Positions 11,089 to 61,768 of a DNA stretch of 64,000 nt are shown in pieces. Position 1 is the stretch's first letter, and each line of letters starts with the position of its first letter. A model generated the notes under the pieces. It did no database searches. It worked only from the letters and a program-made list of their open reading frames with translations, and was not told where the DNA came from. The position numbers and the translations under genes are program-made. Origin of the DNA: Candidatus Levyibacteriota bacterium (GTDB taxonomy: Bacteria > Patescibacteriota > Microgenomatia > Levybacterales > UBA12049); the NCBI GenBank assembly GCA_003152105.1, contig PLZJ01000002.1, forward strand, positions 533,682-597,681. The letters are read 5' to 3'.

Positions 11089-11688
11089 ATGGAACAAGAA
11101 CAGCAAAGTAGAGATATAAGCACAAACCAAATGTTACTTGCCCAAAAAAGTGAGTTTGCAAAGCAAGTACAAAAAGACAAAGCTATATTAGAATTCACAC
11201 AAAAAATACGAAATCAACTTTTGTCAGATAAACTACATGAGAAAGCGGTTAAAGGAGCTTTAGAAAATCCAGATGCAAGTCAAGGACTAGAACTTTTTGC
11301 CCGTTCGGTTTTTGAAACGCCAACAAAACTAGAAGCAACAGGAGTAAATGGAACCATGGTTGTTGCTATTAAACAAGGACCAGCACTTGCAGAAAATGAA
11401 GCGTTTGCATTTGATTTAGCAAAGCCAGAGGATGGGGTAGTTAAAACATTACTTTTGGCGCAACATACTGCAAAAACAGGAAAGGATAAAGGAGTTATGC
11501 TAGTTCCAGACGCGTCGCTTCGTGAAACGATGACCAGAGAAAATAATCGAAGCGATGAAGAAATATTAGCAGATAAAAATAGTGATTATCTCAAGTTTGT
11601 ACGCTTTGTAAATAAAACACAGGGACTAGTGATTTCGCTTCCTAAAAATGGTCGAGCAATGCAGGTTCGGGTTGGCGGCATGTTATAA
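11089..11688 (+). CDS. Hypothetical protein (199 aa)
   Basis: ORF 21 nt downstream of the previous gene. No recognisable motif. Confidence 0.5.
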   Translation: MEQEQQSRDISTNQMLLAQKSEFAKQVQKDKAILEFTQKIRNQLLSDKLHEKAVKGALENPDASQGLELFARSVFETPTKLEATGVNGTMVVAIKQGPALAENEAFAFDLAKPEDGVVKTLLLAQHTAKTGKDKGVMLVPDASLRETMTRENNRSDEEILADKNSDYLKFVRFVNKTQGLVISLPKNGRAMQVRVGGML

Positions 11689-11702
11689 GCATTACCTCAT
11701 AA

Positions 11703-21136: not shown

Positions 21137-21856
21137 ATGTTAAAAGCAGTTACCTTTAGTAGTCATGGTGAAGAAGTTCATGGCACATTAATCATCCCTC
21201 AGAAATTGAAAAACAAAAATCCTGGAGTTGTTTTAATTCATGGCTTTGGGAGTAATGAAAAAAACTATATTCCACTTGGTGAACGACTGGCAGAAATTGG
21301 CATAGTTGCTTTTACGATAAATTTGAGAGGACATAAGGGAAACAATAATGTAGAGGATTTCTTAAAGGTTAAAGATGGATTTGAAGATGGCTTAGCGTCT
21401 TTTGATTTTTTAACAAGTTTTGAATTTATTGATAAAGAGAGAATTGGCATATGCGGCGCGAGTTTTGGTGGAGGTATTTGTGCATATGTGAGCGGTCGGC
21501 GAAAAGTAAAAAGTATAGTCCTTCGAGCGCCTGCTACTTATTCAGATTACCTTCTAAATCTTACTCTCCCTGAGATTTTAAAAGAAGAAGGAGATAAATT
21601 TAATAATATGGAGAATATTTTCGATACGATTCCCATCAAGAGCTTAGAAGAATTCAAAGGATATCTTTTAATTATTACTTCAGAAAATGATGAGGTTATT
21701 CCAAAAAGAATGACTGATGCGTTTTTGCATGCAGCCAGAAATGCAGCACATAAAGATTTGACAAAAATAAAAGATGCAACTCACGGATTAGACAATGATA
21801 TTTGGAAAGAGAAATTTAGGCATTTAACAATTGACTGGTTTCAAAAAACCTTGTGA
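21137..21856 (+). CDS. Alpha/beta-hydrolase (dienelactone-hydrolase/BAAT-like)
   Basis: GVVLIHGFGS oxyanion region, nucleophile elbow GASFGGG, Asp/His downstream (ENDEV…THG). Confidence 0.75.
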   Translation: MLKAVTFSSHGEEVHGTLIIPQKLKNKNPGVVLIHGFGSNEKNYIPLGERLAEIGIVAFTINLRGHKGNNNVEDFLKVKDGFEDGLASFDFLTSFEFIDKERIGICGASFGGGICAYVSGRRKVKSIVLRAPATYSDYLLNLTLPEILKEEGDKFNNMENIFDTIPIKSLEEFKGYLLIITSENDEVIPKRMTDAFLHAARNAAHKDLTKIKDATHGLDNDIWKEKFRHLTIDWFQKTL

Positions 21857-21926
21857 CCCCAGAGGAAGTCGAATCCTCGTCTTCAGGATGAGAACCTGAT
21901 GTCCTAGGCCACTAGACGATGGGGCC
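21854..21926 (-). tRNA. tRNA-Glu (anticodon CUC)
   Basis: 73-nt cloverleaf folded by hand. Acceptor GGCCCCA/TGGGGTC, D-loop with GG, anticodon loop TT-CTC-AT, T-arm GAGGA-TTCGACT-TCCTC, discriminator A, no encoded CCA. Overlaps the stop codon of 21137..21856. Confidence 0.85.
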
Positions 21927-22025: not shown

Positions 22026-22787
22026 ATGGATACTATTTACTTATCTGTTGTGATCCCTTCGTATGATGAGATGGCAAATTTACAAAAAGGAGTCTTGGAA
22101 AAAATTGACAGATTTCTAAGTAAAAAATCTTATTCATTTGAAGTAATAATAGTTGATGATGGATCAAAAGATGGAAGTATTGAATTTGTAGAAGATTTTA
22201 TTAAGGATCACTCTCAGTTTACTGTCATTAAAAATCCTCATTTTGGAAAAGCTGGAGCAGTCACTACAGGAATGTTAAAAGCAAAAGGAAAATATAGATT
22301 GTTTACTGATATGGATCAAGCTACACCGATCGAAGAGCTAGATACTGTTTTACCATTTTTAGAAAATGAACAATTTGATCTAGTAATTGGATCTCGAAAA
22401 AATCAGAGAAAAGGGGCGCCTTTAATAAGGTTATTTGTTTCAAGAAGTAATATAGTGCTAAGAAAATTAATTGTTGGTATTTTAGATATTTCTGATACGC
22501 AGTGTGGATTTAAAATATTTAAAGATAGTGTTGCTTCGGATATATTTGAAACATTTCGGAAAATAAAAAAAGGATTTATCGCAACAAATGGAGCTGCCGT
22601 AACTTCAGGATTTGATGTTGAGCTACTATATATAGCAGAAAAAAAAGGTTACAAAATTAAAGAAGTACCAGTAAAGTGGTTATATGTTGAGAGCCGACGA
22701 GTTAATCCAATAACTGATTCTGTAAAAGGATTAATTGATCTACTTTTGATTAGATTAAATATTCTAAAAGGAATATATACTACATGA
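22026..22787 (+). CDS. GT2 polyprenyl-phosphate sugar synthase (DPM1/GtrB/ArnC-like)
   Basis: LSVVIPSYDE, VIIVDDGSKDGS, DMDQ, DTQCGFK. Single-domain GT2 of the Dpm1 type. Confidence 0.85.
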   Translation: MDTIYLSVVIPSYDEMANLQKGVLEKIDRFLSKKSYSFEVIIVDDGSKDGSIEFVEDFIKDHSQFTVIKNPHFGKAGAVTTGMLKAKGKYRLFTDMDQATPIEELDTVLPFLENEQFDLVIGSRKNQRKGAPLIRLFVSRSNIVLRKLIVGILDISDTQCGFKIFKDSVASDIFETFRKIKKGFIATNGAAVTSGFDVELLYIAEKKGYKIKEVPVKWLYVESRRVNPITDSVKGLIDLLLIRLNILKGIYTT

Positions 22788-23980
22788 AACAATTTAAAGG
22801 TCTTTTTATTTTTACTATTTTTACTTCTCTACTTCTCTTTTTCTATTCATTCACTCAAGTGGATTTGAGTTTAACATTATCAAAATCTTCAGTTTATCAA
22901 AGTGTTGAGAAATGGTTTCAATACATTGGTTATTTTAATAGACCGTTGTCAACTGAGCTATTTATTGGTATTTTAGTACTTCTATTTATTTCTTATTTTT
23001 GGTTACTATATTTAACGCACAAAAAAGTTATTTCAAATAAGCAGTTTTGGTATTTGCTTCTTATAGTAGTATGTATATTAACTTTTTCATATAACGCTTT
23101 TTCTTACGATATTTTTAACAATATCTTTGACGCAAAAATTGTTACGTTTTATCACCAAAATCCATATCTACACAAAGCATTAGATTTTCCTAAAGATCCA
23201 ATGCGTTCGTTTATGCACTGGACGCAAAGAACATATCCGTATGGACCATTATTTTTACTTCTGAATATTGGATTGTCGTATCTAGGTATTAAAATATTTA
23301 TACTAACTTTCTTTATTTTTAAAATAGTAACAAGTTTATTTTTTCTCGGTTGTATATATTATTTACAAAAAATTCTTGGAGGTTGGAGAAAAGAAACATT
23401 ATTTCAAAGTGCTTTTTTCGCATTTAATCCTCTTGTCATTATTGAGTCTATAGTTTCATCACATAATGATGTAATTATGTTATTTTTTGCACTCTGTGGA
23501 TTATATTATTTAATGAAAAAAAAATATTTATTCGCAATACTACTCACACTTTGTTCACCGCTAATTAAGCAAGCTACTTTTTTACTTCCTATTATTATAA
23601 CCCTTTATATCTTGCTTAATAAAAAATTATCTCTCAATAGGTATTCGATATATGCAATATATGCAGTTGTTATGAGTATTATGCTATATGTTTACACCTA
23701 TATTGGATATCTGCTTCCAGGTTTTGCAATTCACGAAATTCAACCATGGTACTTATTGTGGGTTATTCCATTTATAGCGCTTCTTAAACCAAGATATTAT
23801 CTCTATACGCTCTTTATTGGTATCTCACTTGGCCTACTACTTAGATATGTTCCATTTTTATGGCTGGGAAATTGGGATGGTGTTGCTATTCCAGTTCGAA
23901 ATTATTCGTCTTTGCTAGCGCCTTTAGTAGTTCTTGGCTTTGGGTTTATATTTCGGAAATATAAAGTGATAAAGATATAG
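22784..23980 (+). CDS. Polytopic membrane protein, GT87/DUF2029-like putative mannosyltransferase
   Basis: About 10 TM helices. RTYPYGPLFLLL and SSHNDVIM resemble DUF2029 loop motifs. ATGA overlap with the upstream GT2. Confidence 0.4.
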   Translation: MKQFKGLFIFTIFTSLLLFFYSFTQVDLSLTLSKSSVYQSVEKWFQYIGYFNRPLSTELFIGILVLLFISYFWLLYLTHKKVISNKQFWYLLLIVVCILTFSYNAFSYDIFNNIFDAKIVTFYHQNPYLHKALDFPKDPMRSFMHWTQRTYPYGPLFLLLNIGLSYLGIKIFILTFFIFKIVTSLFFLGCIYYLQKILGGWRKETLFQSAFFAFNPLVIIESIVSSHNDVIMLFFALCGLYYLMKKKYLFAILLTLCSPLIKQATFLLPIIITLYILLNKKLSLNRYSIYAIYAVVMSIMLYVYTYIGYLLPGFAIHEIQPWYLLWVIPFIALLKPRYYLYTLFIGISLGLLLRYVPFLWLGNWDGVAIPVRNYSSLLAPLVVLGFGFIFRKYKVIKI

Positions 23981-27291: not shown

Positions 27292-28953
27292 ATGAAAAAT
27301 TTTACTTTTATGCAAAACAATAAATTTTTATACGTAATACTTCTAATCTTATCTATTCCATTACTACTTCCATATATACATTTTGGCTTTTTCCCAAGTC
27401 ATGATGGAGAATGGGCAGTTGTCAGACTAACTGATATGTACAGAGAAATAAAAGATTTACAATTTCCCCCTCGTTATAGTGGTAATTTAGACTTTGGATA
27501 TGGCTATCCATTGTTTAATTTTGCATATCCTTTCCCATATTATCTAAGTTTCTTGTTTCATATCTTGAAATTTAATTTTGTAGATTCTATCAAGCTTTTA
27601 TTTGCAATAACTGTTCCTTTGTCGGGAGTATTTATGTACAAATGTGCACTTTATCTGTGGAAAAACAAATATGCTGCATTTTTTTCGGCACTTCTTTATA
27701 TATATCTTCCTTATAGATTAGTTGATTTATTTGTAAGAGGTTCTATAGGTGAATCTATTGCTTTTGCTTTATACCCAATGCTTTTTTACGCGATATTTGG
27801 ATATTTGCAATCAAAAAAACGTATATATGGCATATTTTTTTCAATACTTCTTGCCATTTTGGTAACGACACATAATATTATGGCCGTTTATTTTATTCCC
27901 TTTATAATAGGTTTTTATATTTATCTTTATTTTACTAATAAGAAAGAGCTTGTATCATTTACGCTTTATATTTTACTTGGGATATGTCTATCAACATTTT
28001 TTTGGTTACCTGCACTTTATGAAAAGCAATATATACAATTATCAGTAATACCGATAGCAGATCGAACTATTAATTTTGTTACGCCTTATCAATTGATTAT
28101 TCCAAAAATAGGTTACGGAGTTCCTAATTTGCCTGATGGTTTTTCCTATCAAATTGGTTTTGCACAGCTTTTATTATTTATTCTTATTATTGTATTTCTC
28201 CTTCGATCATTATTTTCAAAAAAACAAAAGCAAATAAAAAACTTTACATTTATTAGTATATTTAGCATCATTGCTGTTTTTTATACTTCACTTTTATTTT
28301 CTCCAAGTAATTTTTTCTGGGAACATGCCCCTCTATTTAAAGAAATAAACTACCCATGGACACTTTTGTTGCCAATTGGATTTTTGATTTGTTTACTGAC
28401 GGGGTATATTTATAGCTTCAGTAAATATACTGCATATACAATAGCGATCTTATCAATTGTTACTGTATTTTTTTATCTTCCGTATGCAAATCCAGTGTCT
28501 TATGTAAACAGAGGTGATTTTTATTACTTAACAAATGACGCTACCACTACTTCGTCTTCTGAATACACACCACTTTGGGTAAAAGAGAAGCCATTAAAAA
28601 GACCTGATATAAAAGTGTATTCATTAACAAAAAATACCACTTTCTCAAATATTGTATTTAACTCTAAAAAGATTTCATTTGATTCATACGCACAAGAGTC
28701 AAGTACTATTATAATTAATACAATATATTATCCCGGGTGGCATTTGATAATTGATGGAGTAGAAACACATATTGGAATAGTAAATCCGCAGGGAACAATG
28801 AGTATTATTATTCCAAGTGGAACTCATCATATTATGGGGATTTTTAAAGAAACACCACTTAGACTTTTTTCTGATATTATTTCTCTTGTTGCGGTTATAA
28901 TAACAGTTGTATGTTTGGCCTTTTTTCTATTAAGGAGTAAAAATGATAAGTAA
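27292..28953 (+). CDS. YfhO-like polytopic membrane protein (family C paralog)
   Basis: N-terminal PSHDGEWAVVRL…FPPRYS…GYGYPLFNFAYP. C-terminal extracytoplasmic domain with YYPGWH…DG motif. About 13 TM helices. Confidence 0.5.
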   Translation: MKNFTFMQNNKFLYVILLILSIPLLLPYIHFGFFPSHDGEWAVVRLTDMYREIKDLQFPPRYSGNLDFGYGYPLFNFAYPFPYYLSFLFHILKFNFVDSIKLLFAITVPLSGVFMYKCALYLWKNKYAAFFSALLYIYLPYRLVDLFVRGSIGESIAFALYPMLFYAIFGYLQSKKRIYGIFFSILLAILVTTHNIMAVYFIPFIIGFYIYLYFTNKKELVSFTLYILLGICLSTFFWLPALYEKQYIQLSVIPIADRTINFVTPYQLIIPKIGYGVPNLPDGFSYQIGFAQLLLFILIIVFLLRSLFSKKQKQIKNFTFISIFSIIAVFYTSLLFSPSNFFWEHAPLFKEINYPWTLLLPIGFLICLLTGYIYSFSKYTAYTIAILSIVTVFFYLPYANPVSYVNRGDFYYLTNDATTTSSSEYTPLWVKEKPLKRPDIKVYSLTKNTTFSNIVFNSKKISFDSYAQESSTIIINTIYYPGWHLIIDGVETHIGIVNPQGTMSIIIPSGTHHIMGIFKETPLRLFSDIISLVAVIITVVCLAFFLLRSKNDK

Positions 28954-30628: not shown

Positions 30629-31331
30629 ATTAAATGAGCTTACGATTTTTTTTCCCTTTTGGAATGAAGAAAAAAATGTTGAAAAAGTTGTTAACACCGC
30701 ACTTTTAATTGCTCCAACTATTGCAAAAAAATTTGAAATCCTAGTTATTGACGATGGATCAACAGATAACACATTAGAAGTTGCAACGAAACTGGCTTCA
30801 AAACAACCGTTTGTTACCATACTCTCTCATGCTCAAAACAGAGGATACGGTGCTGCTTTAAAAGAAGGGTTTGCAAATGCTCAGTATGATTATATTGTTT
30901 TTACTGATGGAGATGACCAGTTTGATTTTTCTCAAGTTACGAAATTTGTTGAAAAAATACATACTGCTGATATTGTCATAGGATTTCGTAGTAGACGCCG
31001 TGATAACATTAGTCGTCACATATTAATGTATATGCTTCGCATATGGGATCAAGTATTATTTGGATTTCATTTTAAAGATATAGATTGTGGATTTAAAATG
31101 TTTAAAAAATCTGCAATTGAACAAATTTCACCACTTCGTTCAGAGGGTGCAATGATCACTACAGAAATTCTTGCAAAATCTAAAAAGAAGAAACAAATAA
31201 TAAAAGAAGTTGAGGTTGATCACTATCCTCGAAAATTTGGCATTCAAAGTGGTGGAGATGTGTATGTAATAGTACGAGCAGTGTTAGAGAGTTTTGTGCT
31301 ATGGTGGGATATACGAAATGGAAGATTTTAG
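30618..31331 (+). CDS. GT2 polyprenyl-phosphate sugar synthase (DPM1/GtrB-like)
   Basis: VIDDGSTDNT, FTDGDDQ, DCGFK. Confidence 0.85.
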   Translation: MANKLNELTIFFPFWNEEKNVEKVVNTALLIAPTIAKKFEILVIDDGSTDNTLEVATKLASKQPFVTILSHAQNRGYGAALKEGFANAQYDYIVFTDGDDQFDFSQVTKFVEKIHTADIVIGFRSRRRDNISRHILMYMLRIWDQVLFGFHFKDIDCGFKMFKKSAIEQISPLRSEGAMITTEILAKSKKKKQIIKEVEVDHYPRKFGIQSGGDVYVIVRAVLESFVLWWDIRNGRF

Positions 31332-32781
31332 TATTGAGTCAGTATCAAAGAAATCATTAACAGGTTTTTTAGCCTTAAGTTCTCGTACCTTCTTTGTTAA
31401 AATTCTAGGACTAATTACCAGTTTTGTTTTAACAATATTTTTAGATAGATCGAGTTATGGCGTTTATTTTATCGCGTCATCAATTGTCGTTTTTTTAGTG
31501 TATTTTCAAGATATTGGACTTGCAGCTTCACTTATTCAAAAAAAAGAAAAACCTACACTTGAGGAACTACGTACAACATTTACCATTCAGCAAATTTTAG
31601 TATTACTCATTATTATTCCGTCCCTTTATTTCTCAAAATATATAGCAAACTTTTATCATTTAAATACATCGGGATTGTATTTACTCGACGCATTGCTCAT
31701 ATCATTTTTTATCTCATCGCTAAAAACAATACCCACAGTACTACTTGAGCGAGATTTGCACTTCCATAAATTAGTATTACCAGATATTGTAGAAAATGTT
31801 TCATATAATTTATTGCTTGTTATCTTTGCAGTAATGGGATTTGGTATAACAAGTTTTACGATTGCAGTAGTTGTCAGAAGCATACTTGGGCTTTTTGTAA
31901 TTTATTATATACAACCATGGGAAATAGGTATATCTTTAAATTTCGAAGTATTTAAGAAATTGGCTTCATTTGGCCTACCGTTTCAAGCAAATAGTTTATT
32001 GGCACTTCTTAAAGATAACTTGGTTAGTTTATTTATTGGAAAACTACTACCATTTGATCAAGTAGGACTTGTTGGGTTTGCACAAAAAATTTCCTATCTT
32101 CCATCTAATCTAATAATGGATAATGTTATCCGTGTAACGTTTCCTTCTTATAGTAGACTGCAGCATGATAAAGCAGGTTTAAAAATTGTAATTGAAAAGT
32201 CGCTTTTTTTAATTGGACTACTCATTTTCCCTCTTGTTGTACTTCTTATTATATTTTCAGGAGACTTTATTAAATATGTTCCTATTGCCCACTATCAAAA
32301 ATGGGCACCGTCAGTTATGTCCATTACATTTTTCTCATTAAATATATTATTTGCATCAATAACAGTTCCATTAACCAATTTCTTAAATGCTATAGGAAAA
32401 GTAAAACTTACGCTCTATGCAATGGTACTTTTGACTATTTTTACCTGGGGTCTTACTCCCTTATTTATCTTTCTTTATGGCTTTAATGGTGTTGCTATTG
32501 CATCTTTTATTGTGGCAGCAAGTTTGATATTAATTCTCCCTTTTGTAAAAAGACAATTAGAATTTTCGTTTGTAAAACCTATTATAAAACCACTTGTTGG
32601 AGCACTTGGACTTTTGGCGCTAGCTTTAACAACGACCATATTTATTAACAGCTTCATGCTCCTTATGTTTGCTGTCTTTTTCTCTGGTTTTGTTTACCTG
32701 TTTATTATGTACATGCTTGCCAAAGATGATATGAAAAGCATTTATTCATTTAGTAGGAATGCAATATTTAAATCAAAATGA
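31318..32781 (+). CDS. Wzx-like oligosaccharide flippase (polysaccharide biosynthesis protein, MOP superfamily)
   Basis: About 12-14 TM helices with PST-family N-terminal pattern (SLTGFLALSSRTFFVKILGLIT…). The track start 31294 is a TTG; first in-frame ATG is 31318. Confidence 0.7.
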   Translation: MEDFSIESVSKKSLTGFLALSSRTFFVKILGLITSFVLTIFLDRSSYGVYFIASSIVVFLVYFQDIGLAASLIQKKEKPTLEELRTTFTIQQILVLLIIIPSLYFSKYIANFYHLNTSGLYLLDALLISFFISSLKTIPTVLLERDLHFHKLVLPDIVENVSYNLLLVIFAVMGFGITSFTIAVVVRSILGLFVIYYIQPWEIGISLNFEVFKKLASFGLPFQANSLLALLKDNLVSLFIGKLLPFDQVGLVGFAQKISYLPSNLIMDNVIRVTFPSYSRLQHDKAGLKIVIEKSLFLIGLLIFPLVVLLIIFSGDFIKYVPIAHYQKWAPSVMSITFFSLNILFASITVPLTNFLNAIGKVKLTLYAMVLLTIFTWGLTPLFIFLYGFNGVAIASFIVAASLILILPFVKRQLEFSFVKPIIKPLVGALGLLALALTTTIFINSFMLLMFAVFFSGFVYLFIMYMLAKDDMKSIYSFSRNAIFKSK

Positions 32782-33698: not shown

Positions 33699-33712
33699 AT
33701 TATTGTTTGTCT

Positions 33713-35275
33713 ATGAAAAACATATATAAATTAAAAACAAAAGTAAAAACTATTCTGTTTTTTGTTGTAATGCCACTTTTTTTTCTTTTTATGCTCTATG
33801 TATATTATCAAAAAGCTGTTGCCTTTAGTTTTATAGATGAATTCAATAACTTTATGGCAGGCTATTACATACTGCAAGGCAAATCGCTTTATTCACAAAT
33901 ATTTTTTCAACACCAGCCCTTAATGGCATATATGAGTGCTTTTATTCAGCTCGTGCTTCATCCTGATACCTTATATAAGTTAATTTTGTATCACCGAATA
34001 TTTATTATTTTTGTCTCTATACTTTTTGACATACTACTTATCTATCGTTTTTCCTATATTGGTGTAGCGTTTAGTATTTTCTTTGAGTTATCTAAATTTT
34101 ATTTATTTGGAAGTCTATTTTTAGGAGAATCTTTTATCGTTTATCCTATTGTTTATTTATTTGGGCTTGCTTGGGAAAAACTACAAAAAAAAGTACTTTC
34201 ACTGCAAGATATTTTGATAAGTGGATTTTTTACTTTTTTAGTTGTGTGTACTCGTGAACCTTTCATTCCTGTAACGCTTTGTTTGTATGGATACGTACTC
34301 ATTGGAAAGTTAACAAAAAGCAAAGCATACAGCATTTGTTTTTTTCTTTTTTTAACATCATTAACACTTTTGACTTTACCACTTAGACAATATATGTTCG
34401 ACATAATTACAGTCAATTACAATAGCGTAGCTCTATCTGAAACCGCTGCTAATGGTATTCGGGGTATTGGCATTTTTCAAATATTTATATATCCATTTCT
34501 GTTATTTTTTGGTGGATCATGGAACATATTGAGAGAAATTATTGTTTTGTGTGACGTAATGCTACTCGGGATGTTGATATATGCATTTTATATTGGGAAA
34601 CGATTAAGTGTTTTATTTATACTTTTTTTTCTTGGGTTAGCAGCAGTACGTATAGTAACTCCAGGAACTATTTATTTTTCTGCTTATCATATTTTACCTT
34701 GGTACGGCTTATTTATCATGTCTTTATTTTTATTACTCAGTTTGTTCTATACAAAAAAATATAAACGTATATTTATAGTACTAGGTCTTTATAGTTTTAT
34801 CATCTGTTTGTTTATGCTTTTTTCAACACAATCTTTTATCTTTGAAAAGAATAATAGAAGTAATGATTTTACGACAAATTATGAACGATACTTTGTATTT
34901 GGATCTGTTATCCATGCGCTTGCAAAGCCCACCGATACAGTATTTGTTGATTCATGGGATAGCTTAATCTATTGGCAAGCAAAACAGCCTGTTGCATATC
35001 CGTATATATTTTATTATGTCCCGATGAATAATTACCCAATCTTTACTAATGCAAGAGTCGTGATGTTTAAGAATAACCCGCCTGATTTTTATTATTTTTA
35101 CTGTGGAGAAACAAAGTACTATTCACCTGGTATACCAAATATATATAAAAATGAATATAAACAGCTGTATAATATAACTGGACCTTCTTGTTTATATGTG
35201 CTTACTAAAAAAATTCCACAGATATCGCAAAATCAGTGGAATAGTGCTAAACAATTAGGATTTTATTTACCATGA
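33713..35275 (+). CDS. Polytopic membrane protein, family D paralog (uncharacterised, putative GT-C-like)
   Basis: First loop DEFNN-x-MAGYYILQG…HQPLMAY…SAFIQ, shared with 46192 (DEFDN…GGSYILHG…HGPLAYF…SAFIQ). Confidence 0.45.
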   Translation: MKNIYKLKTKVKTILFFVVMPLFFLFMLYVYYQKAVAFSFIDEFNNFMAGYYILQGKSLYSQIFFQHQPLMAYMSAFIQLVLHPDTLYKLILYHRIFIIFVSILFDILLIYRFSYIGVAFSIFFELSKFYLFGSLFLGESFIVYPIVYLFGLAWEKLQKKVLSLQDILISGFFTFLVVCTREPFIPVTLCLYGYVLIGKLTKSKAYSICFFLFLTSLTLLTLPLRQYMFDIITVNYNSVALSETAANGIRGIGIFQIFIYPFLLFFGGSWNILREIIVLCDVMLLGMLIYAFYIGKRLSVLFILFFLGLAAVRIVTPGTIYFSAYHILPWYGLFIMSLFLLLSLFYTKKYKRIFIVLGLYSFIICLFMLFSTQSFIFEKNNRSNDFTTNYERYFVFGSVIHALAKPTDTVFVDSWDSLIYWQAKQPVAYPYIFYYVPMNNYPIFTNARVVMFKNNPPDFYYFYCGETKYYSPGIPNIYKNEYKQLYNITGPSCLYVLTKKIPQISQNQWNSAKQLGFYLP

Positions 35276-46191: not shown

Positions 46192-47955
46192 ATGCATGGG
46201 CTATTCCATAAGAGCTATAACAGCGTTAAGCATGGAACTTGGAAATGGGTGCTTTTCTTCATTTTCGTTTATAGCTTATTTTTTGTAAATTCTTTCCACG
46301 AAAAGTATACAGATGAATTTGATAACGTCCTTGGAGGATCATATATTCTTCATGGAAGACTTCCCTATAATGGATTTTTTAGTCATCATGGCCCATTAGC
46401 ATATTTTGTTTCTGCATTTATACAAATATTTAGCGGACATTCATTTGTTCATTTTAGAGTTGCGTACGGATTATTCTTATTCCTTATGACAATGGGTGTG
46501 TATTTCTATTTTAGATGTAGATTCAGTGAATATACAGCACGAATATATCTTGCCTTTATGGTACTTTTAGGAATTTCTGCATCCTATTATTGGGGACACA
46601 TGCTTATTGCTGATAGTCTTGCAGGATTTTTCTTATCATATGTTTTTTCATTTTTTCTGTTTCAAAATCTCTTAAGTATTAAAATAACCACTCGGGATAT
46701 TATATTTATCTCACTTTTTACTTCTCTTGCGTTACTTACTGCATTAACCTACATATATCTCTGTTTATTTATTTATCTTTATGTACTTGTTCTTATTTTT
46801 TCTACGCACAAAGGATTAGGTAAATCAAATATCGTTTTTAAAACAATGCTAATATGTGGGACTCCATATATACTATTTTTACTATACTTATTGTTTACTG
46901 GAAGCTTTTCCAACTATTTATATCAATCGGTAATATTTAATCAAAAATATTATATCTATTTTCAAGGAGTATCTGGCGCGCCCAAAAATCCAATTCGACA
47001 AATAATAATTATTGCTTATAATTTTTACCAAAACTTTTTTACTTTACTAGTGCAAGCGAAAGAATTAAATTTTTCATCTCCTTTTAATATTACACTAGCG
47101 ATAACAAATGTAACACTTCTTATTTATTTATTTTTACAAAAAAGATATAAATTATTACTTTTTATACTTTTATTTATTACATATGCAAATGCAAGATCTA
47201 ATCCCTTAGATTCAAGAGAAACTGATTATCAATCTGCTGTATATATTACTGCAACCCTTTTTTCAATGTGTTACGTGCTTTACTTGTTAACGAAATCACT
47301 AAGTAGCCATTTAGATGAGGTAAGAAAGTCAGTTTATCTATTGCTATTTTTGTTAACTGGTACTTACTGTTTTTTTACAACAGGTTTTTTACTATCTAAA
47401 TTTGCGTCAAAAGCTTACACTAAATATATGGGAATGGCTCCTTTGATATACGATACATCCTCAATTGCTCCTCTTATTAATACGTTGGCTTCAAAAGATG
47501 ATTATGCTTGGATAGGTCCTTTAAATTTTGATGACCTATATTATATGCAAGCTAAATTACCATCTAAATATCACATACTTATTCCAGGAATGGGTAAATC
47601 AGCTGTTATACAACAAGATATGCTCAGTGAATTTTCAAAAAATAAGCCAAAAGTTATGTATTTTGATAAAAATTTCTTTATATTAGGTAGTAGCCCAAAC
47701 CAATTTGCTCAATTTTTTATTAGTTTTGTTTCAGCAAATTATATAACGCTTGGAACATATAACAGCAATGAAGTTAAATATACGCAAATAAATTCATCTA
47801 CTAATGTAGATATTATAAACAATCTTTATATTAATAAAGATACTGTCCCAGAAGTTATTAATTTACTTGAGAAAAATAATTATATTAAAGAAGAGCAAGT
47901 TCAAAAACCTCAATTAGTAACTGTGGCTAGAAGGCCTCTTACGACTCATTACTAA
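46192..47955 (+). CDS. Polytopic membrane protein, family D paralog
   Basis: DEFDNVLGGSYILHG…HHGPLAYFVSAFIQ. About 12 TM helices plus a C-terminal soluble domain. Confidence 0.45.
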   Translation: MHGLFHKSYNSVKHGTWKWVLFFIFVYSLFFVNSFHEKYTDEFDNVLGGSYILHGRLPYNGFFSHHGPLAYFVSAFIQIFSGHSFVHFRVAYGLFLFLMTMGVYFYFRCRFSEYTARIYLAFMVLLGISASYYWGHMLIADSLAGFFLSYVFSFFLFQNLLSIKITTRDIIFISLFTSLALLTALTYIYLCLFIYLYVLVLIFSTHKGLGKSNIVFKTMLICGTPYILFLLYLLFTGSFSNYLYQSVIFNQKYYIYFQGVSGAPKNPIRQIIIIAYNFYQNFFTLLVQAKELNFSSPFNITLAITNVTLLIYLFLQKRYKLLLFILLFITYANARSNPLDSRETDYQSAVYITATLFSMCYVLYLLTKSLSSHLDEVRKSVYLLLFLLTGTYCFFTTGFLLSKFASKAYTKYMGMAPLIYDTSSIAPLINTLASKDDYAWIGPLNFDDLYYMQAKLPSKYHILIPGMGKSAVIQQDMLSEFSKNKPKVMYFDKNFFILGSSPNQFAQFFISFVSANYITLGTYNSNEVKYTQINSSTNVDIINNLYINKDTVPEVINLLEKNNYIKEEQVQKPQLVTVARRPLTTHY

Positions 47956-55418: not shown

Positions 55419-56690
55419 ATGATTAAAAAAATTAAAATACTCTTATCTCATCCTTTAATTTCCGGTTCAACAATACTTCTTGCTGGTAATTTTATAGCAA
55501 ATATATTGAATTGGATATTTAATTTACTCATTGGAGGGAGGCATTTACTATCTGTTGCAGATTATGGAGTATATTCGACATTAGTATCGTTAACAATACT
55601 GGTTGGAATTTTTCAAAGTTCATTTACAAATATTATAGCTCGGTATACTGCCAAAGTGAGTGTGAATAAGGATCAAAAAACGTTAAATTCTATTCTATTT
55701 TCAGGAGGAAAAACAATTCTGTTATTTGCAATTTGTCTTTTGATTGTTCTTCTCCTTTGCTTACCTTTTCTTGCTTCATACTTACATATAGTAGATATAC
55801 GGTTACTACTTATTCTCTATGTTTATATATTTATTGTCATTTTATCTTCCCTACCTCTTGGAATATTGCAAGGGCAACTGCGCTTCTTAAATATATCACT
55901 ATACACAATTGCAACGAGCCTGCTAAAGCTTATTTTAGGAATCATCTTTATAGTACTTGGTTATCAAATATATGGTGTGATTATTGCAGTATTTCTATCT
56001 GGATTACTGCCTATTTTATACATTTCATCATCACTGCTGACTCAGTTTAAAAAAACGGCAAATAGTGGAAAGCAACATCCAGATTTTATGGCAGAATTTA
56101 GAGGTAAATCGCTAGAATTTTTACTGGCTACACTTGGAATAACTGCAATAACTTCACTTGATATAATTCTTGTCAGGCATTTTATGACGCCAGATTTAGC
56201 AGGTAAATATGCTGCGCTTTCAGTTATGGGAAAGGCAATATTGTATCTTACTTCTCCTATGTATTTTGCTTTTTTCCCACTTATAGTACAAAAAAAAGAA
56301 AAGAAAGAATCATTAAAAACTACGGTTTTAATTGCTTCCTTGTTTATCGGATTGGTTTCTGGTTTTTTGACATTGCTTTATTTTATATTTCCAAACTTTA
56401 TTCTTCACATATTTTTTCCAGCAAAGGAATATGCCGTACTTTCTCCTTATCTTGGGTTATTTGCGTTATTTATGATGATATTTTCTTTTGTAATGCTTTT
56501 ATATAATTATCTTTTATCTATTGGTCAGACAAAAATATATAGAATAACGCTTTTTGCAGCTGCATTATTTATACTTCTTATATATATGTATCACCAAAAT
56601 TTATATGAAGTAATCTATATACTACTTGCAATTTCTCTTTTACTTTTAGGTTCATTTTTACTATACTTAACACTTGATGAGCAAAACTAA
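55419..56690 (+). CDS. Wzx-like flippase / polysaccharide biosynthesis membrane protein
   Basis: About 12 TM helices, LAGKYAAL motif, PST-like N-terminus. Confidence 0.6.
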   Translation: MIKKIKILLSHPLISGSTILLAGNFIANILNWIFNLLIGGRHLLSVADYGVYSTLVSLTILVGIFQSSFTNIIARYTAKVSVNKDQKTLNSILFSGGKTILLFAICLLIVLLLCLPFLASYLHIVDIRLLLILYVYIFIVILSSLPLGILQGQLRFLNISLYTIATSLLKLILGIIFIVLGYQIYGVIIAVFLSGLLPILYISSSLLTQFKKTANSGKQHPDFMAEFRGKSLEFLLATLGITAITSLDIILVRHFMTPDLAGKYAALSVMGKAILYLTSPMYFAFFPLIVQKKEKKESLKTTVLIASLFIGLVSGFLTLLYFIFPNFILHIFFPAKEYAVLSPYLGLFALFMMIFSFVMLLYNYLLSIGQTKIYRITLFAAALFILLIYMYHQNLYEVIYILLAISLLLLGSFLLYLTLDEQN

Positions 56691-57422: not shown

Positions 57423-58718
57423 ATGATTGACATAACGAAATTAAATAAATTTAAAGATAAAAATGTAGTTGTTTTTGGAGATATAATGCTTGATAAATAT
57501 ACTGATGGATTAGTTAATAGGATTTCTCCAGAAGCACCAGTTCCAGTACTCAAAAAATCAAAAGATACGTATACACTAGGTGGCGCTGCAAATGTAGCAA
57601 ATAATTTGATAGGACTTGGAGCGAGTGTCTTTTTAAGTGGAATAATTGGTACTGATGAAAACGGAAAAACTCTTCTCAATTTATTAAAGGAAAAAAAGAT
57701 AGATGCAACGCTTATTTATAAAGATAAAAATGTAGTCACTATTACTAAAAATAGAATACTTGGAAACAATCAACAACTAATTCGAATTGATGAAGAAAAT
57801 GACATAGCAGAAATTCCAAAGATTAAGGTTGCTGAGTTAAAAAACATAAAAAAAATTATTGCAAAATCTGACGTTGTTGTTCTCTCAGATTATGGTAAAG
57901 GGTATTTTAATAAAAAACTTGCAGCGCAGATAATTCAATTAGCAAAAAAACTAGATAAACTTATCTTAGTTGATTGTAAACCTGTAAACAAATCGTATTT
58001 TATAGGAGTAGATGTGATAAAACCAAACTTGAAAGAAGCAAAAGAAATGACGAGCGAGTCTTCGATTTCCGATATCGGCTCAAAACTTGTTAAATATTTT
58101 AAATCCAATATTGTGCTCACATCAGGAGGAGACGGCATATACTTATATGATAAAAAAGGGAAATCCACACATTTTTCTTCTCAAAAAGTGGAAGTGTTTG
58201 ATGTTAGTGGAGCAGGAGATACAGTGCTTGCTATGTTAGCTTTAACACTTGCTTCAAGCTTTACCTTACAAGATGCATCTTATCTTGCCAATTATGCAGC
58301 TGGTATTGTTGTGCAAAAACAAAGAACTGCTGCAATTTCATATGATGATTTGCTTAGTGTTTTACAAGAAGATAGTCATTTAGATAAAGTTGCTATTGTT
58401 CCAAAATTATGGGGATATGAGAAATGGATTGAGAATAATGAGATGTACTGCTCAAAACTACTGTATTTAAAAAAAGGATATCAATGCAGTTTGCATTACC
58501 ATAAAATAAAAGATGAAATGTTTATTGTCACCAGTGGTCATGTAAGACTTGAAGTAGATGACAAAGTTGTTTATTTACGAACAGGAAATTTTCAACGTAT
58601 TAAGGCTTTAACAAAACACAGATTTTTGGGCTTAGAAGAGTCAACTATAATTGAAGTAAGTACGCAACATTTTGAAGATGATTCTTATAGAATTGAAGAG
58701 AGTAAAAAAGTTTCATGA
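57423..58718 (+). CDS. D-glycero-beta-D-manno-heptose-7-phosphate kinase (HldE domain I/HldA-like, ribokinase fold) fused to a C-terminal metal-binding cupin domain
   Basis: Kinase: VVVFGDIMLDKY…VPVLK, LGGAANVANNL, FDVSGAGDTV. Cupin from about 58389: G-x5-HYH-x4-E-x6-G (GYQCSLHYHKIKDEMFIVTSG) and a second His in LTKHRFLG. Confidence 0.8.
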   Translation: MIDITKLNKFKDKNVVVFGDIMLDKYTDGLVNRISPEAPVPVLKKSKDTYTLGGAANVANNLIGLGASVFLSGIIGTDENGKTLLNLLKEKKIDATLIYKDKNVVTITKNRILGNNQQLIRIDEENDIAEIPKIKVAELKNIKKIIAKSDVVVLSDYGKGYFNKKLAAQIIQLAKKLDKLILVDCKPVNKSYFIGVDVIKPNLKEAKEMTSESSISDIGSKLVKYFKSNIVLTSGGDGIYLYDKKGKSTHFSSQKVEVFDVSGAGDTVLAMLALTLASSFTLQDASYLANYAAGIVVQKQRTAAISYDDLLSVLQEDSHLDKVAIVPKLWGYEKWIENNEMYCSKLLYLKKGYQCSLHYHKIKDEMFIVTSGHVRLEVDDKVVYLRTGNFQRIKALTKHRFLGLEESTIIEVSTQHFEDDSYRIEESKKVS

Positions 58719-59716
58719 ATAATCTTATAGCAACTGAGAAAGACCTTCTTTCAACAATCAAGACAATAAGAAAAAATAATCAAACAATAGTGACATATAA
58801 TGGTAGTTTTGATTTGTTGCATATAGGACACATACGTTCTATTCATGAAGCAAAACAACAAGGGGATATTCTCATAGTGCTACTTAATTCTGATAACTCA
58901 GTTAAAAAATATAAAGGATCGAGCAGACCTATTATTGGTGAAAATGATCGAGCAGAAATGTTGCTTTCTTTAAAAGATGTTGATTATGTATATATTTTTG
59001 ATGCAATAAATCCTAAATCAATATTAGAACTTATAAAACCTACTGTACATTGTAATGGATCTGATTGGGGTAAGGATTGTGTAGAAAAAGATGTGGTAGA
59101 AAAAAATGGAGGTAGCGTACATGTACTTTCATGGAACGAAGGAAGCTCAACCTCGAATCTTATAGCGAAAATTATAAGTGCAAACAAAATTCCACCTAAG
59201 AAAGCTGTATTTATCGATAGAGATGGCACTATAAATGATAATAAAAATGGATATGTGCATACAAAAGAAGAATTTTCACTGCTTCCTGGTGTTGAAACAG
59301 CACTTAAAGCTTTAGGTGCATCTGATTTTTTAATAATTATCATAACAAATCAGTCAGGTATAAGTCGTGGTATGTATACCGAAGAAGAGTATGTTTTATT
59401 TGAAAAATGGTTTATGAGTGAAATGGAAAGAAGAAAAATTCGTATTGATAAAATTTATCATTGCCCACATGGATCTTTTGATAATTGTTCTTGTCGGAAA
59501 CCAGGGAGTGGAATGTTGTTTCAAGCAGTTACTGATTTTGATATTAGTTTAAATGACAGTTGGATGATTGGTGATAGTGAAGTAGATATTATTTTAGGAA
59601 GAGAAGTTAATACAAAAACAATTAAACTTGGCACACCTATGAGCAAGAGCACTAATCTAGAACCTAATTATTATGCCAACAGTCTAACTGACGCGATTGC
59701 TCTCATTTTGAAATAA
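58715..59716 (+). CDS. D-glycero-beta-D-manno-heptose-1-phosphate adenylyltransferase (HldE domain II/HldC-like) fused to D,D-heptose-1,7-bisphosphate phosphatase (GmhB)
   Basis: Nucleotidyltransferase: NGSFDLLHIGHI (HxGH). HAD phosphatase from about 59200: FIDRDGTIN, CSCRKPGSGM, GDSEVD. Confidence 0.8.
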   Translation: MNNLIATEKDLLSTIKTIRKNNQTIVTYNGSFDLLHIGHIRSIHEAKQQGDILIVLLNSDNSVKKYKGSSRPIIGENDRAEMLLSLKDVDYVYIFDAINPKSILELIKPTVHCNGSDWGKDCVEKDVVEKNGGSVHVLSWNEGSSTSNLIAKIISANKIPPKKAVFIDRDGTINDNKNGYVHTKEEFSLLPGVETALKALGASDFLIIIITNQSGISRGMYTEEEYVLFEKWFMSEMERRKIRIDKIYHCPHGSFDNCSCRKPGSGMLFQAVTDFDISLNDSWMIGDSEVDIILGREVNTKTIKLGTPMSKSTNLEPNYYANSLTDAIALILK

Positions 59717-59723
59717 TATACTG

Positions 59724-60704
59724 ATGTCAAATATAAAAGATTATTCTAGTCCAATAATTATTACAGGAGGAGCGGGATTTATAGGTTCTAATTTAGTCAA
59801 ATCCTTAAATGATAAAGGTATTTTTGATATTTATATAGTAGATGATTTGAATTCCCACTTTAAGAAATCTTATCTTGAAAAACTAATATATATAAAATAT
59901 TTTGATAAGAAAGATTTTCGAAAATTACTCCAAAATAAACAACTTCCAAAAGCTGAGTCAATTATTCATTTAGGAGCATGTTCTGATACGACTGAATATA
60001 ATATGCAATATTTATTAGACAATAATGTTGCATATAGTAAAGACATATTTAAATATTGTTTAGATTCAGGAATAAAGTTTATCTATGCATCTTCTGCGGC
60101 AGTCTACGGTGATGGTGTAAATGGATATAACGAAAATGTGACAAAGCTATGGCCTTTAAATCCTTATGCAAAATCTAAATACTTGTTTGATGAATGGGTT
60201 ATAAAAAAATCACATAAACCCTCAACGTGCGTAGGTCTTCGATTTTTTAATGTTTACGGACCCAATGAGTTTCACAAAGGGAAAATGGCTTCAATGGTTT
60301 TTCAAGCATTTAATCAAGTGAATGATAATGGGGCGATTCGATTATTTAAATCTTACAATAAAAAATATGCTGATGGAGCGCAACAGCGAGATTTTATATA
60401 TGTTTGCGATGTTGTAGATGTTATAGAATTTTTTCTAAAACAAAAAAATAGCACTGGTATTTTTAATGTTGGTTCAGGAAAAGCCAGATCTTTTAATGAT
60501 TTAGCAAAAGCATTATTTAAATCTATGCAAAAAGATGAAAACATACAATATATTGCAATGCCAAAGTCGCTGATCGCAAAATATCAATATTTTACACAAG
60601 CTGACTTAGATCATTTACGAAGTGCAGGATATAAAGGCAGTTTTACTACTATAGAAGAAGGAATTAGAAAATACGTACAAGAGTATTTACAAAAAACTCC
60701 CTAA
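59724..60704 (+). CDS. hldD: ADP-L-glycero-D-manno-heptose 6-epimerase
   Basis: IIITGGAGFIGSNLVKSLNDKG, HLGACSDTTE, YASSAAVYGDG, catalytic NPYAKSKY. The sequence follows the HldD/RfaD pattern along its whole length. Confidence 0.9.
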   Translation: MSNIKDYSSPIIITGGAGFIGSNLVKSLNDKGIFDIYIVDDLNSHFKKSYLEKLIYIKYFDKKDFRKLLQNKQLPKAESIIHLGACSDTTEYNMQYLLDNNVAYSKDIFKYCLDSGIKFIYASSAAVYGDGVNGYNENVTKLWPLNPYAKSKYLFDEWVIKKSHKPSTCVGLRFFNVYGPNEFHKGKMASMVFQAFNQVNDNGAIRLFKSYNKKYADGAQQRDFIYVCDVVDVIEFFLKQKNSTGIFNVGSGKARSFNDLAKALFKSMQKDENIQYIAMPKSLIAKYQYFTQADLDHLRSAGYKGSFTTIEEGIRKYVQEYLQKTP

Positions 60705-60706: not shown

Positions 60707-61768
60707 ATGAAAATAGCAGTGCTTTGTTTGCCTGGAATTGGTGATGCCTTGATGGCTACTCCAATGATTTCTCTGCTCCGAAAAAATTACCCTAGCGCTC
60801 GAATAGATATTATTTGTATGTTTGATGGGGTGTCTTACATTTTTGAAACGAACAAAGATATTTCACATACCTTTAAACTCTCTTTGTACAAAGAGAACAA
60901 AATAAAAGGATTAATTCAGATATATAAACTTAGAAAACAAAAGTATGATATTTCAATTATGGCTTTTCCAGCATTTAGACGGGAATATAATTTAGTTCAT
61001 TATATTGTAGGCGCAAAGAAACGTATTGCTCATTCATTTACCCACGGATACTTTTCCGAATTTACTTTTTTAAATAACACAACAATTCCGTTTGACGGAA
61101 AAGAGCATAATGTAATAAATAATTTAAATCTTTTAAATAGCTTACAAATAAAATGGAATGATACAATAAAGCGAAATACTATATCGTATTTGTTGCACTT
61201 ACAGCATAAAGATGTTCTATTTGGCACTCATTACATTGCATCTAAAGGCCTGGCAAATAAAAAGCTTTTAGCAATACACCCTGGATCCATAAATTCTAAA
61301 GCAGGTTTATTAAAACGTTGGCCAATTAAAAATTACATAAATTTGATTAATACATTAGCAGATCGAAATTGTCACATATTACTTTTTGGAGGTCCTTTTG
61401 AAAAAGAAATAATTACTGAAATTACAAAATCCGTTAAAAAAAGTAGCTATCTTACGGTTGTGGATAATGTTACGTTTGGTCAAAGTCTTGGTATATTACA
61501 AAAAGCAAGATTGCTCATATCAAATGATAATGGTTTTGCTCATCTTGCAAACGCATTACAGATTAATGAACTTACGTTATTTGGACCAACTAATCCAATT
61601 TGGTGTAGTCCATATAATAAAAATTATGCTCATGTTATTAGGGAAGCATCATTTACTCCTTGGTTTCGTCCAGACATGAAAGTTACTACTCTTCCACGTT
61701 TTGCACCAAGTGGCATGGAATTAATAACTGTGGCAAGCGTATTGAATGTGTTAAAAAAGTTGTTATAA
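60707..61768 (+). CDS. GT9 family ADP-heptose-dependent heptosyltransferase (WaaC/WaaF/WaaQ-like)
   Basis: MKIAVLCLPGIGDALMATPMISLLRK N-terminus. C-terminal HPGS…KRWP and DNGFAHLA motifs typical of GT9. Confidence 0.8.
   Translation: MKIAVLCLPGIGDALMATPMISLLRKNYPSARIDIICMFDGVSYIFETNKDISHTFKLSLYKENKIKGLIQIYKLRKQKYDISIMAFPAFRREYNLVHYIVGAKKRIAHSFTHGYFSEFTFLNNTTIPFDGKEHNVINNLNLLNSLQIKWNDTIKRNTISYLLHLQHKDVLFGTHYIASKGLANKKLLAIHPGSINSKAGLLKRWPIKNYINLINTLADRNCHILLFGGPFEKEIITEITKSVKKSSYLTVVDNVTFGQSLGILQKARLLISNDNGFAHLANALQINELTLFGPTNPIWCSPYNKNYAHVIREASFTPWFRPDMKVTTLPRFAPSGMELITVASVLNVLKKLL

Follow-up and report, generated by a model that had tools for sequence, protein, structure and literature searches.

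How an activated heptose could be made and used in a bacterium in which an LPS context is absent, and which enzyme would catalyse the first step where GmhA is missing from the locus, are the questions raised by a cassette of a groundwater bacterium of the Patescibacteria (CPR). ADP-heptose is both a building block of the cell envelope and a potent agonist of the innate-immune receptor ALPK1, and recent work has charted the enzymes of its synthesis across kingdoms on the basis of homology to GmhA, HldA/HldE, GmhB and HldC. ADP-heptose biosynthesis genes were noted in Paceibacteria at the module level only (PMC9166423); the literature on ADP-heptose in Patescibacteria yielded nothing else of relevance. 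The whole stretch of DNA analysed, 64 kb in length, is called the window below.

Organization of the cassette

The following features were located:

57423..58718, + strand: HldA-cupin gene, 431 aa, predicted heptose-7-phosphate kinase with C-terminal cupin
57441..58364, + strand: HldA kinase domain, aa 7-314 (TIGR02198, PF00294)
58398..58697, + strand: cupin domain, aa 326-425, candidate sedoheptulose-7-phosphate isomerase (Cupin_2, PF01050)
58715..58718, + strand: ATGA start/stop overlap of the kinase-cupin gene and the fusion gene (read in the sequence)
58715..59716, + strand: bifunctional HldC-GmhB gene, 333 aa (ORF, NCBIfam, Pfam, homologues, AF2)
58757..59173, + strand: HldC-type heptose-1-phosphate adenylyltransferase domain, aa 15-153 (TIGR02199)
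59174..59197, + strand: interdomain linker ISANKIPP, aa 154-161 (dip in AF2 pLDDT)
59198..59689, + strand: GmhB heptose-1,7-bisphosphate 7-phosphatase domain, aa 162-325 (PRK08942, TIGR01662)
59724..60704, + strand: HldD, ADP-glycero-manno-heptose 6-epimerase, 326 aa (TIGR02197)
60707..61768, + strand: GT9-family glycosyltransferase, 353 aa, putative heptosyltransferase (PF01075)

The ATG of the fusion gene overlaps the TGA of the upstream kinase-cupin gene as ATGA, which suggests translational coupling of the two genes. HldD and a GT9 transferase, named as the following genes in the earlier note, were both recovered in the family searches. HldD scored 401 bits with TIGR02197 (equivalog cut-off 274.6) and the GT9 gene 94.8 bits with PF01075 (cut-off 22), the latter staying below the cut-offs of the LPS heptosyltransferase I/II/III equivalogs TIGR02201, TIGR02195 and TIGR02193. 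The gene order HldA-cupin, HldC-GmhB, HldD, GT9 recurs on independent contigs (loci L082-L086, L089 and L163). The surroundings of the cassette form a glycosylation island of more than 40 kb, rich in GT-C enzymes.

The HldC-GmhB protein

The reading frame of the fusion gene starts with ATG and is single, with zero internal stops, and Pfam assigned its product to the CTP_transf_like and HAD families. For the N-terminal domain the top nucleotidyltransferase match was TIGR02199 (rfaE_dom_II, E 1.1e-44, 151.7 bits, below the equivalog cut-off of 181.5). The nucleotidyltransferase motif GxFDxxHxGH is present as GSFDLLHIGH (aa 30-39, with LHIGHI at aa 35-40); in an alignment of the fusion proteins G30, F32 and D33 are invariant and H36, G38 and H39 at least 90% conserved. 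WNEGSSTS (aa 140-147) is an STT-like variant of (F/L)xxGxSTT. Upon comparison with HldC of Burkholderia pseudomallei (5x9q/5xf2), an E value of 8e-40 (hmmsearch), 33% identity and a TMt of 0.80-0.85 were obtained.

The best match of the C-terminal domain was PRK08942 (E 2.2e-46, 157.7 bits, cut-off 178). The score with TIGR00213 was likewise below the cut-off (128.6 against 149.6 bits), and that with the parent HAD-IIIA model TIGR01662 above it (95.6 against 44.6 bits). All four HAD motifs were found, D168-R-D170-G-T (in FIDRDGT, aa 166-172; DRDGT at nt 59216-59230), T-N212-Q-S-G, K262 and G286-D287...D291, together with a zinc loop C250-P-H252...C258-x-C260 (nt 59462-59494; CSCRKP at aa 258-263). 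The residues of motifs and loop are invariant or at least 90% conserved among the aligned fusion proteins. E. coli GmhB (2gmw/3l8e; E 9e-56, TMt 0.84, 34% identity) shares DxDGT, TNQSG, the Lys, GDxxxD and the Cys/His zinc loop; GmhB of the window differs in being placed behind HldC.

The AF2 model of the fusion comprises two domains (pLDDT 92.1, pTM 0.87), each above a pLDDT of 87, and a dip to about 59-63 in two 10-residue blocks at aa 141-160. The adenylyltransferase and phosphatase identities proposed in the earlier note thus agree with the domain annotation, and the motifs LHIGHI, DRDGT and CxCRKP that it quoted were all located. Judged from its sequence, the product is a genuine bifunctional HldC-GmhB enzyme with intact catalytic motifs and two predicted activities.

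Reality and distribution of the fusion

A database search returned 569 relatives of the protein at E<=1e-10. The best 120 of these were all HldC-GmhB proteins of approximately 324-353 aa with 51-59% identity, mostly from Patescibacteria/CPR and originating from independent NCBI, ENA, JGI and Logan assemblies. The identical protein is present on contigs of 1.14-1.15 Mb. Among 150 representatives, the order HldC-GmhB was found in 88, each a distinct 50%-identity cluster, versus GmhB-HldC in 22, and unfused and three-domain forms occurred as well; HldC and GmhB are also unfused in some loci with a kinase-cupin gene (L088, L162).

A frameshift, a misassembly or a miscalled start could in principle join two genes artificially. 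The sole source of this reading is a caveat in the earlier note, no support for it was found, and we consider its probability negligible. The frame is unbroken, both domains are confidently packed in the AF2 model and one domain order is kept across the 88 clusters; above all, the full-length homologues share the architecture (120/120 of the best 120 of 569), so the fusion is not an artefact. With hundreds of full-length homologues, and independent assemblies ruling it out, the artefact reading was dropped. The same survey lends no support to another suggestion, that a domain order opposite to the reaction order implies channeling, as both orders, unfused forms and three-domain forms exist.

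The HldA kinase and its cupin domain

The division of the pathway into a kinase with a cupin and an adenylyltransferase with a phosphatase, as described in the earlier note, was borne out by TIGR02198 and Cupin_2/PF01050 matches in the upstream gene. The kinase domain scored 314.6 bits with TIGR02198 (E 6.6e-94), just under the cut-off of 345, and 143.6 bits with PF00294. It carries the PfkB motifs GGAANVA and DVSGAGDT, which are invariant, as are G263, A264, G265 and D266. The HldA-cupin architecture is common to all of the best 120 relatives.

The cupin domain was recognized by Cupin_2 (33 bits, cut-off 27.2) and by PF01050 (28.7 bits, cut-off 23.6), the C-terminal domain of type II phosphomannose isomerases (PMI). 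The metal ligands HxH..E..H correspond to H358, H360, E365 and H399 (nt 58494-58619). The motif G(x)5HxH(x)3-4E(x)6G, here GYQCSLHYHKIKDEMFIVTSG, and H399 of the second motif are invariant throughout. Mean column identity in the cupin is 70% versus 55% for the whole HldA-cupin protein, and the cupin is more conserved than the kinase.

The AF2 model of the cupin (pLDDT 96) matched the Thermococcus cupin phosphomannose isomerases 7zvy/7zvm best among PDB folds (E 7e-9, TM 0.79-0.85). Like the window cupin, these minimal enzymes consist of a single barrel of about 110 aa with a His/His/Glu/His metal site; identity is about 20%, and the window cupin differs in being fused or linked to heptose enzymes, with sedoheptulose-7-phosphate as its proposed substrate. 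The scores of the matches to PMI, KdgF, lyxose isomerase and oxalate decarboxylase were close, so the function is not fixed by the fold alone. A search of PDB sequences with the profile of the cupin gave an uninformative list of generic cupins headed by quercetinase; somewhat greater specificity was reached with the fold search, which was still not decisive. An RmlC-type epimerase was considered and rejected: PF00908 was absent from the cupin's matches at E<=0.01, and the metal ligands are conserved.

Absence of GmhA and its relation to the cupin

GmhA was searched for in the 64-kb window by tblastn with the E. coli protein (best E 1.6) and with an HMM derived from 31 GmhA proteins of the related loci described below, which gave no match. 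The earlier note had called the cassette self-contained. Its reading as ADP-L,D-heptose supply and use stands; self-containment does not hold in the usual sense, as GmhA for step 1 is absent from both cassette and window.

A collection of 240 related loci was assembled, of which 80 metagenomic and 80 viral loci were selected by the cupin and 80 by GmhB. The latter, mostly with stand-alone GmhB and obtained from a contig scan with the GmhB motif, served as control set. GmhA was found in 0/80 metagenomic and 0/80 viral cupin-selected loci (1.57 Mb) versus 31/80 GmhB-selected loci, figures to be read with the short length of many cupin-bearing contigs and the phylogenetic non-independence of the loci in mind. 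Across the collection, no locus with the cupin carried GmhA. Among loci with a strong HldA, GmhA occurred in none of 12 with the cupin and in 18 of 27 without it (Fisher p = 8e-5, the loci not being phylogenetically independent). Nine of these 27 cupin-less loci had no GmhA nearby, so GmhA can be encoded elsewhere in a genome.

In two unfused operons the cupin takes the slot of GmhA, namely cupin/HldD/HldA/GmhB/HldC (L127) and cupin/HldA/GmhB/HldC/GT9 (L015), and a GmhB-cupin-HldC fusion (P0269) parallels an HldC-GmhB-GmhA fusion (P0329). In CPR, DPANN and phage contexts the cupin is fused or adjacent to HldA, HldC and GmhB, with the isomerase as the one missing activity. From this genomic context, the cupin on the kinase probably replaces GmhA as the isomerase of step 1. 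In 29 of the 80 viral loci neither a kinase nor a nucleotidyltransferase lay within 6 kb of the cupin, and 17 of these showed no other pathway domain; the cupin family may therefore have other roles too.

Alternative functions of the locus

The cupin might not be the pathway isomerase at all. A SIS-type GmhA would then be encoded elsewhere in the 1.1-Mb genome, of which the 64 kb of the window were inspected, and the cupin would serve as a phosphomannose isomerase, as a regulatory or ligand-binding module of the kinase, or as an epimerase of sugars or nucleotide sugars that modifies the heptose. We regard this as a real possibility, though the less probable one. It agrees with the unlinked GmhA of 9/27 cupin-less HldA loci, with the viral loci that carry the cupin and lack heptose genes, and with PF01050 and the JGI annotations, which call the family mannose-6-phosphate isomerase-like; other cupins also act as epimerases in the modification of GDP-heptose in Campylobacter. 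Against it stand the contrast in GmhA between cupin-selected (0/160) and control (31/80) loci, the position of the cupin beside or within heptose enzymes where only an isomerase is missing, the parallel fusions P0269 and P0329, and a metal-ligand motif that suits aldose-ketose isomerases. To these come the lack of an RmlC-type epimerase match at E<=0.01 and of mannose-activation genes in the cassette.

The product might also be CDP-, UDP- or GDP-heptose, or a non-heptose sugar made by look-alikes of HldA, GmhB and HldC. The HldA, HldC and GmhB domains score below their NCBIfam equivalog cut-offs, so substrate details could differ, and the absence of an LPS context in the organism points the same way. 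Some heptose nucleotidyltransferases are NTP-promiscuous, among them the STTR5 type with Arg at position 5 of (F/L)xxGRSTT (PMC11573728). This hallmark arginine is absent from WNEGSSTS of the window, where Ser occupies the position, and was seen in 1 of 40 aligned fusion proteins, which argues against another nucleotide. The top family matches all belong to the beta-heptose ADP pathway, a gene of the heptosyltransferase family GT9 comes next, and HldD exceeds its equivalog cut-off and has a chemistry that needs a C6 secondary alcohol, as in a heptose. Another activated sugar is thus considered unlikely.

Proposed pathway and comparison with known systems

The cassette likely encodes an ADP-L,D-heptose pathway with five activities on three genes, followed by GT9, in which the cupin would be the sedoheptulose-7-phosphate isomerase. 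In step 1, the cupin would isomerize sedoheptulose-7-phosphate to heptose-7-phosphate in a metal-dependent ketose-to-aldose conversion, replacing the SIS-fold GmhA; this would be the C7 analogue of the conversion of fructose-6-phosphate to mannose-6-phosphate by cupin phosphomannose isomerases. Heptose-7-phosphate would be phosphorylated by the HldA domain of the same protein (step 2), after which the GmhB domain, as heptose-1,7-bisphosphate 7-phosphatase, would yield heptose-1-phosphate. This is predicted to be converted with ATP to ADP-D,D-heptose by the N-terminal HldC domain (step 4) and the product to ADP-L,D-heptose by HldD. GT9 may then transfer the heptose onto a non-LPS acceptor as part of envelope glycosylation by the surrounding island. 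What the sequences show are the domain identities, the intact catalytic motifs, two fusions that are real and widespread, and the lack of GmhA in the window and in all cupin-bearing loci; we infer all enzyme activities of the locus, as well as the cupin's function as isomerase, the nucleotide and the acceptor.

The same five steps, with the same families for steps 2-5, are found in the HldE system of E. coli, which has separate GmhA, GmhB and HldD; the window proteins match the HldE model PRK11316 with each half. In HldE the adenylyltransferase is joined to the kinase, whereas in the window it is joined to the phosphatase and the kinase to a cupin. The window further differs by the lack of a SIS-type GmhA and by a CPR host without an LPS context. 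The single nucleotidyltransferase domain of HldC type resembles that of the split HldA/HldC systems of Burkholderia and Neisseria, but is covalently joined to GmhB.

In the published scheme (PMC11573728, PMC11461863), heptose nucleotidyltransferases are divided into mono-domain, kinase/nucleotidyltransferase and isomerase/kinase/nucleotidyltransferase types only, and the nucleotidyltransferase/phosphatase type of the window falls outside this scheme. GmhA (SIS_2) and the cupin share the proposed reaction, the operon slot and the fusion partners, as seen when P0329 is compared with P0269 and L002 with the window; they are unrelated in sequence and fold, and the cupin would depend on a metal. 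Displacement of a sugar-phosphate isomerase of the SIS superfamily by a metal-dependent cupin has a precedent in the cupin-type phosphoglucose isomerase, which replaces the SIS-type enzyme in archaea and in some CPR (work cited in PMC7304191); it belongs to another family (PF06560) with another substrate and serves as an analogy only. A literature search for a cupin-type sedoheptulose isomerase in the heptose pathway, or for GmhA combined with a cupin, gave nothing relevant.

On balance, we lean towards the wider reading that the cupin is an unrecognised metal-dependent sedoheptulose-7-phosphate isomerase, a non-orthologous displacement of GmhA in many CPR, DPANN and many phages, and that HldC-GmhB forms a fourth class of heptose nucleotidyltransferases.

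Significance

The locus adds two architectures, HldC-GmhB and HldA-cupin, that are absent from the published three-type scheme. It also raises the question of how heptose is used in bacteria without LPS. The candidate analogous isomerase would account for pathways that look incomplete in the genomes of CPR, DPANN and phages. If the cupin is indeed the isomerase, surveys based on GmhA homology undercount the producers of the innate-immune agonist ADP-heptose.

Gene content and the fused enzyme

Features of the window (coordinates, strand, description)
21853-21926, minus: tRNA-Glu (CTC), the window's only tRNA, marking the 5' edge of the glycosylation island
22026-64000, plus: glycosylation island, more than 40 kb on one strand, running past the window end to about 21 kb of L001, the locus that carries the sequence onward
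31294-32781 and 55419-56690, plus: two Wzx-like flippases
57423-58718, plus: HldA-cupin, with a PfkB heptose-7-P kinase at aa 7-314 (TIGR02198, E 6.6e-94) and a C-terminal cupin at aa 326-425
58715-58718, plus: ATGA overlap of the HldC-GmhB ATG and the HldA-cupin TGA
58715-59716, plus: HldC-GmhB, ATG start, 333 aa, a single frame without interruption

Residues 15-153 of HldC-GmhB matched rfaE domain II, the heptose-1-P adenylyltransferase HldC (NCBIfam, 151.7 bits, E 1.1e-44), and residues 162-325 the heptose-1,7-bisphosphate 7-phosphatase GmhB (NCBIfam PRK08942, 157.7 bits, E 2.2e-46), while Pfam assigned CTP_transf_like and HAD families. This agrees with the fusion proposed in an earlier note, whose LHIGHI, DRDGT and CxCRKP (here CSCRKP) motifs were all found. 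In a 40-sequence alignment, G30, F32, D33, H36, G38 and H39 of the HldC half and D168, D170, N212-G215, C250, H252, C258, C260, K262, D287 and D291 of the GmhB half were invariant or at least 90% conserved. An AlphaFold2 model built on the protein's own homologue alignment (pLDDT 92.1, pTM 0.87) had low confidence at the linker region only. Its halves superposed on Burkholderia HldC 5xf2 (TMt 0.80-0.85) and E. coli GmhB 2gmw (TMt 0.84, 34% identity); no solved chain among the structure matches spanned both. By its sequence, the ORF very probably encodes a bifunctional adenylyltransferase/phosphatase.

A search of 5.8 billion proteins returned 569 relatives at E<=1e-10. The best 120 of these (324-353 aa, 51-59% identity, near full-length coverage) came from NCBI, ENA, JGI and Logan assemblies, organism-named entries being mostly Patescibacteria, Microgenomates or Kerfeldbacteria, and all 120 were typed HldC-GmhB by custom domain HMMs. 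Their source annotations read only GmhB, 'HAD-IIIA family hydrolase' or 'rfaE nucleotidyltransferase domain'. An identical protein was also present on contigs of 1.14-1.15 Mb. The fusion is genuine: a frameshift or sequencing error, the artefact considered in the earlier note, is ruled out by the single open frame and by 120 full-length relatives of the same architecture from separate assemblies.

Domain architectures

The architecture census comprised the best 150 of 264 hits at E<=1e-30, for which 1.84 billion cluster representatives were scanned exhaustively with HMMER.

Architectures among the 150 representatives
HldC-GmhB: 88
HldC alone: 24
GmhB-HldC (opposite order): 22
GmhB alone: 5
HldA-HldC: 4
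HldA-HldC-GmhB: 3
GmhB-HldC-HldA: 1
HldC-GmhB-GmhA: 1
GmhB-cupin-HldC: 1
HldC-GT9: 1

From this distribution, with 88 representatives against 22 and further combinations besides, HldC and GmhB have been fused repeatedly, in either order. That both orders occur speaks against a mechanistic reading of the 'reverse' order, and its earlier interpretation as a sign of channeling is unsupported; heptose-1-P may possibly be channeled between the fused active sites. Two commentaries on a cross-kingdom 2024 survey (PMC11573728, PMC11461863) distinguish three nucleotidyltransferase architectures, mono-domain, kinase/NTase and isomerase/kinase/NTase, and the NTase/phosphatase didomain falls outside these three. 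No published description of this didomain was found in a literature search. As an architecture, the fusion is a common and unpublished variation on known enzymes.

In eleven representatives of 564-628 aa, P0263 and ten others, HldC-GmhB is extended at the C-terminus by about 250 aa; in P0263, the sole one scanned, a histidine-kinase-type HATPase_c domain lies in this extension, joining a heptose enzyme to a signalling module. Among fusions that involve the pathway's 'use' end is the 517-aa HldC-GT9 representative P0358, and in locus L163 (12296-14530), where HldD was not present, a 744-aa GT9-GT4 protein immediately follows HldC-GmhB.

Genomic setting and product

As described earlier, the kinase-cupin gene precedes the fusion, and HldD (TIGR02197, 401 bits, above cut-off) and a GT9 glycosyltransferase (profile match) lie downstream. 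The STTR5 arginine, a hallmark of NTP promiscuity, was not found in the window's HldC, which has Ser at that position; this and an HldD of equivalog level make ADP-heptose the favoured prediction for the product. The GT9 enzyme scored below every NCBIfam LPS heptosyltransferase equivalog threshold, so the acceptor of the heptose is likely a surface glycan or glycoconjugate other than LPS. Encoded in the surrounding island are ten or more paralogous GT-C membrane glycosyltransferases of 495-750 aa (PMT_2, PMT and YfhO families), along with numerous GT2 and GT4 enzymes and a number of SDR epimerases. No Pfam hits were obtained for several island ORFs of 400-590 aa (22784-23980, 27292-28953, 33707-35275 and 46192-47955).

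The cupin and the missing isomerase

The cassette covers steps 2-5 of the pathway, and the cupin is its sole domain without an assigned step. No gene for GmhA, the step 1 isomerase, was found in the 64-kb window by tblastn with an approximate E. coli GmhA query (best E 1.6) or by an HMM from 31 GmhA genes of the fetched loci. The cassette had been called 'self-contained', which holds only if the cupin is the step 1 isomerase.

HldA-cupin matches HldC-GmhB in how widely it occurs (120 of the 120 best hits, mostly CPR). The cupin is the better conserved of its two halves: mean column identity was 70% in the cupin versus 55% over the whole protein, with metal ligands H358, H360, E365 and H399 and about 25 more residues invariant. 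The cupin exceeded the Pfam cut-offs of two families, Cupin_2 and the type II phosphomannose-isomerase C-terminal domain, and many relatives also matched the D-lyxose isomerase family. Its AlphaFold2 model (pLDDT 96) best matched the approximately 110-aa Thermococcus cupin phosphomannose isomerases 7zvy and 7zvm (E 7e-9, TM 0.79-0.85), with KdgF, lyxose isomerase and other cupins scoring close behind; the fold is functionally promiscuous.

Across 240 fetched loci, analysed by six-frame ORFs and custom HMMs, GmhA was present in 31 of 80 GmhB-selected loci and in none of the 80 metagenomic and 80 viral cupin-selected loci (1.57 Mb in total, many contigs short). Where a strong HldA was present, GmhA occurred in 18/27 loci without the cupin versus 0/12 with it (Fisher p = 8e-5, the loci being related and non-independent). 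GmhA could instead be encoded elsewhere in this genome, as it is unlinked in a third of HldA control loci. Gene order fits a replacement of GmhA by the cupin: within the CPR, the order is GmhA, HldA, HldC-GmhB in Saccharibacteria locus L002 and HldA-cupin, HldC-GmhB in the window, and the cupin occupies the GmhA slot in the unfused operon L127 (cupin, HldD, HldA, GmhB, HldC, GT2) and in Nanoarchaeota L015 (cupin, HldA, GmhB, HldC, GT9). The three-domain representatives P0269 (GmhB-cupin-HldC, 472 aa; L244, 970-2388, beside an HldA gene) and P0329 (HldC-GmhB-GmhA(SIS_2), 542 aa) are parallel fusions with cupin and GmhA in equivalent places ('Rosetta stone' evidence).

The chemistry is compatible: as an isomerase, the cupin would turn sedoheptulose-7-P into D-glycero-D-manno-heptose-7-P, the C7 homologue of the phosphomannose isomerase conversion of fructose-6-P to mannose-6-P. 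A precedent is the cupin-type PGI that displaces a SIS-superfamily sugar-phosphate isomerase in archaea and some CPR (PMC7304191), as proposed here for GmhA. We lean, with some reserve, towards the cupin being a pathway enzyme, namely the sedoheptulose-7-P isomerase.

Other cupin cassettes

In Candidatus Daviesbacteria (L162, CP066688.1), the stretch 10001-13207 holds HldA-cupin, then a GmhB that stands alone (191 aa) and a divergent GT9. No HldC was present in the 10 kb to each side; this lineage either has its nucleotidyltransferase elsewhere or puts the heptose phosphate to different use. Another cassette recurs in marine and freshwater sequences (L148, 8002-11134; comparable marine loci among L115-L160) and comprises an SDR epimerase, a 132-aa nucleotidyltransferase, a shortened 264-aa PfkB-like kinase, the cupin and a WavE-like protein, accompanied by FkbM methyltransferases and a GT10; it contained no phosphatase or GmhA, and several of its contigs are also listed in IMG/VR as viral.

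At least 462 cupin-family matches (about 43-52% identity) were found in IMG/VR viral contigs. None of the 80 viral loci contained GmhB. In 48 of them a PfkB kinase and a nucleotidyltransferase of small size accompany the cupin, in most cases joined by an HldD-like SDR, which suggests putative NDP-heptose cassettes of phages organised around the cupin. Another 29 had neither kinase nor nucleotidyltransferase within 6 kb of the cupin, 17 of them no other pathway domain at all, a caveat for the isomerase reading. It is the cupin as candidate isomerase, rather than the fusion itself, that merits follow-up.
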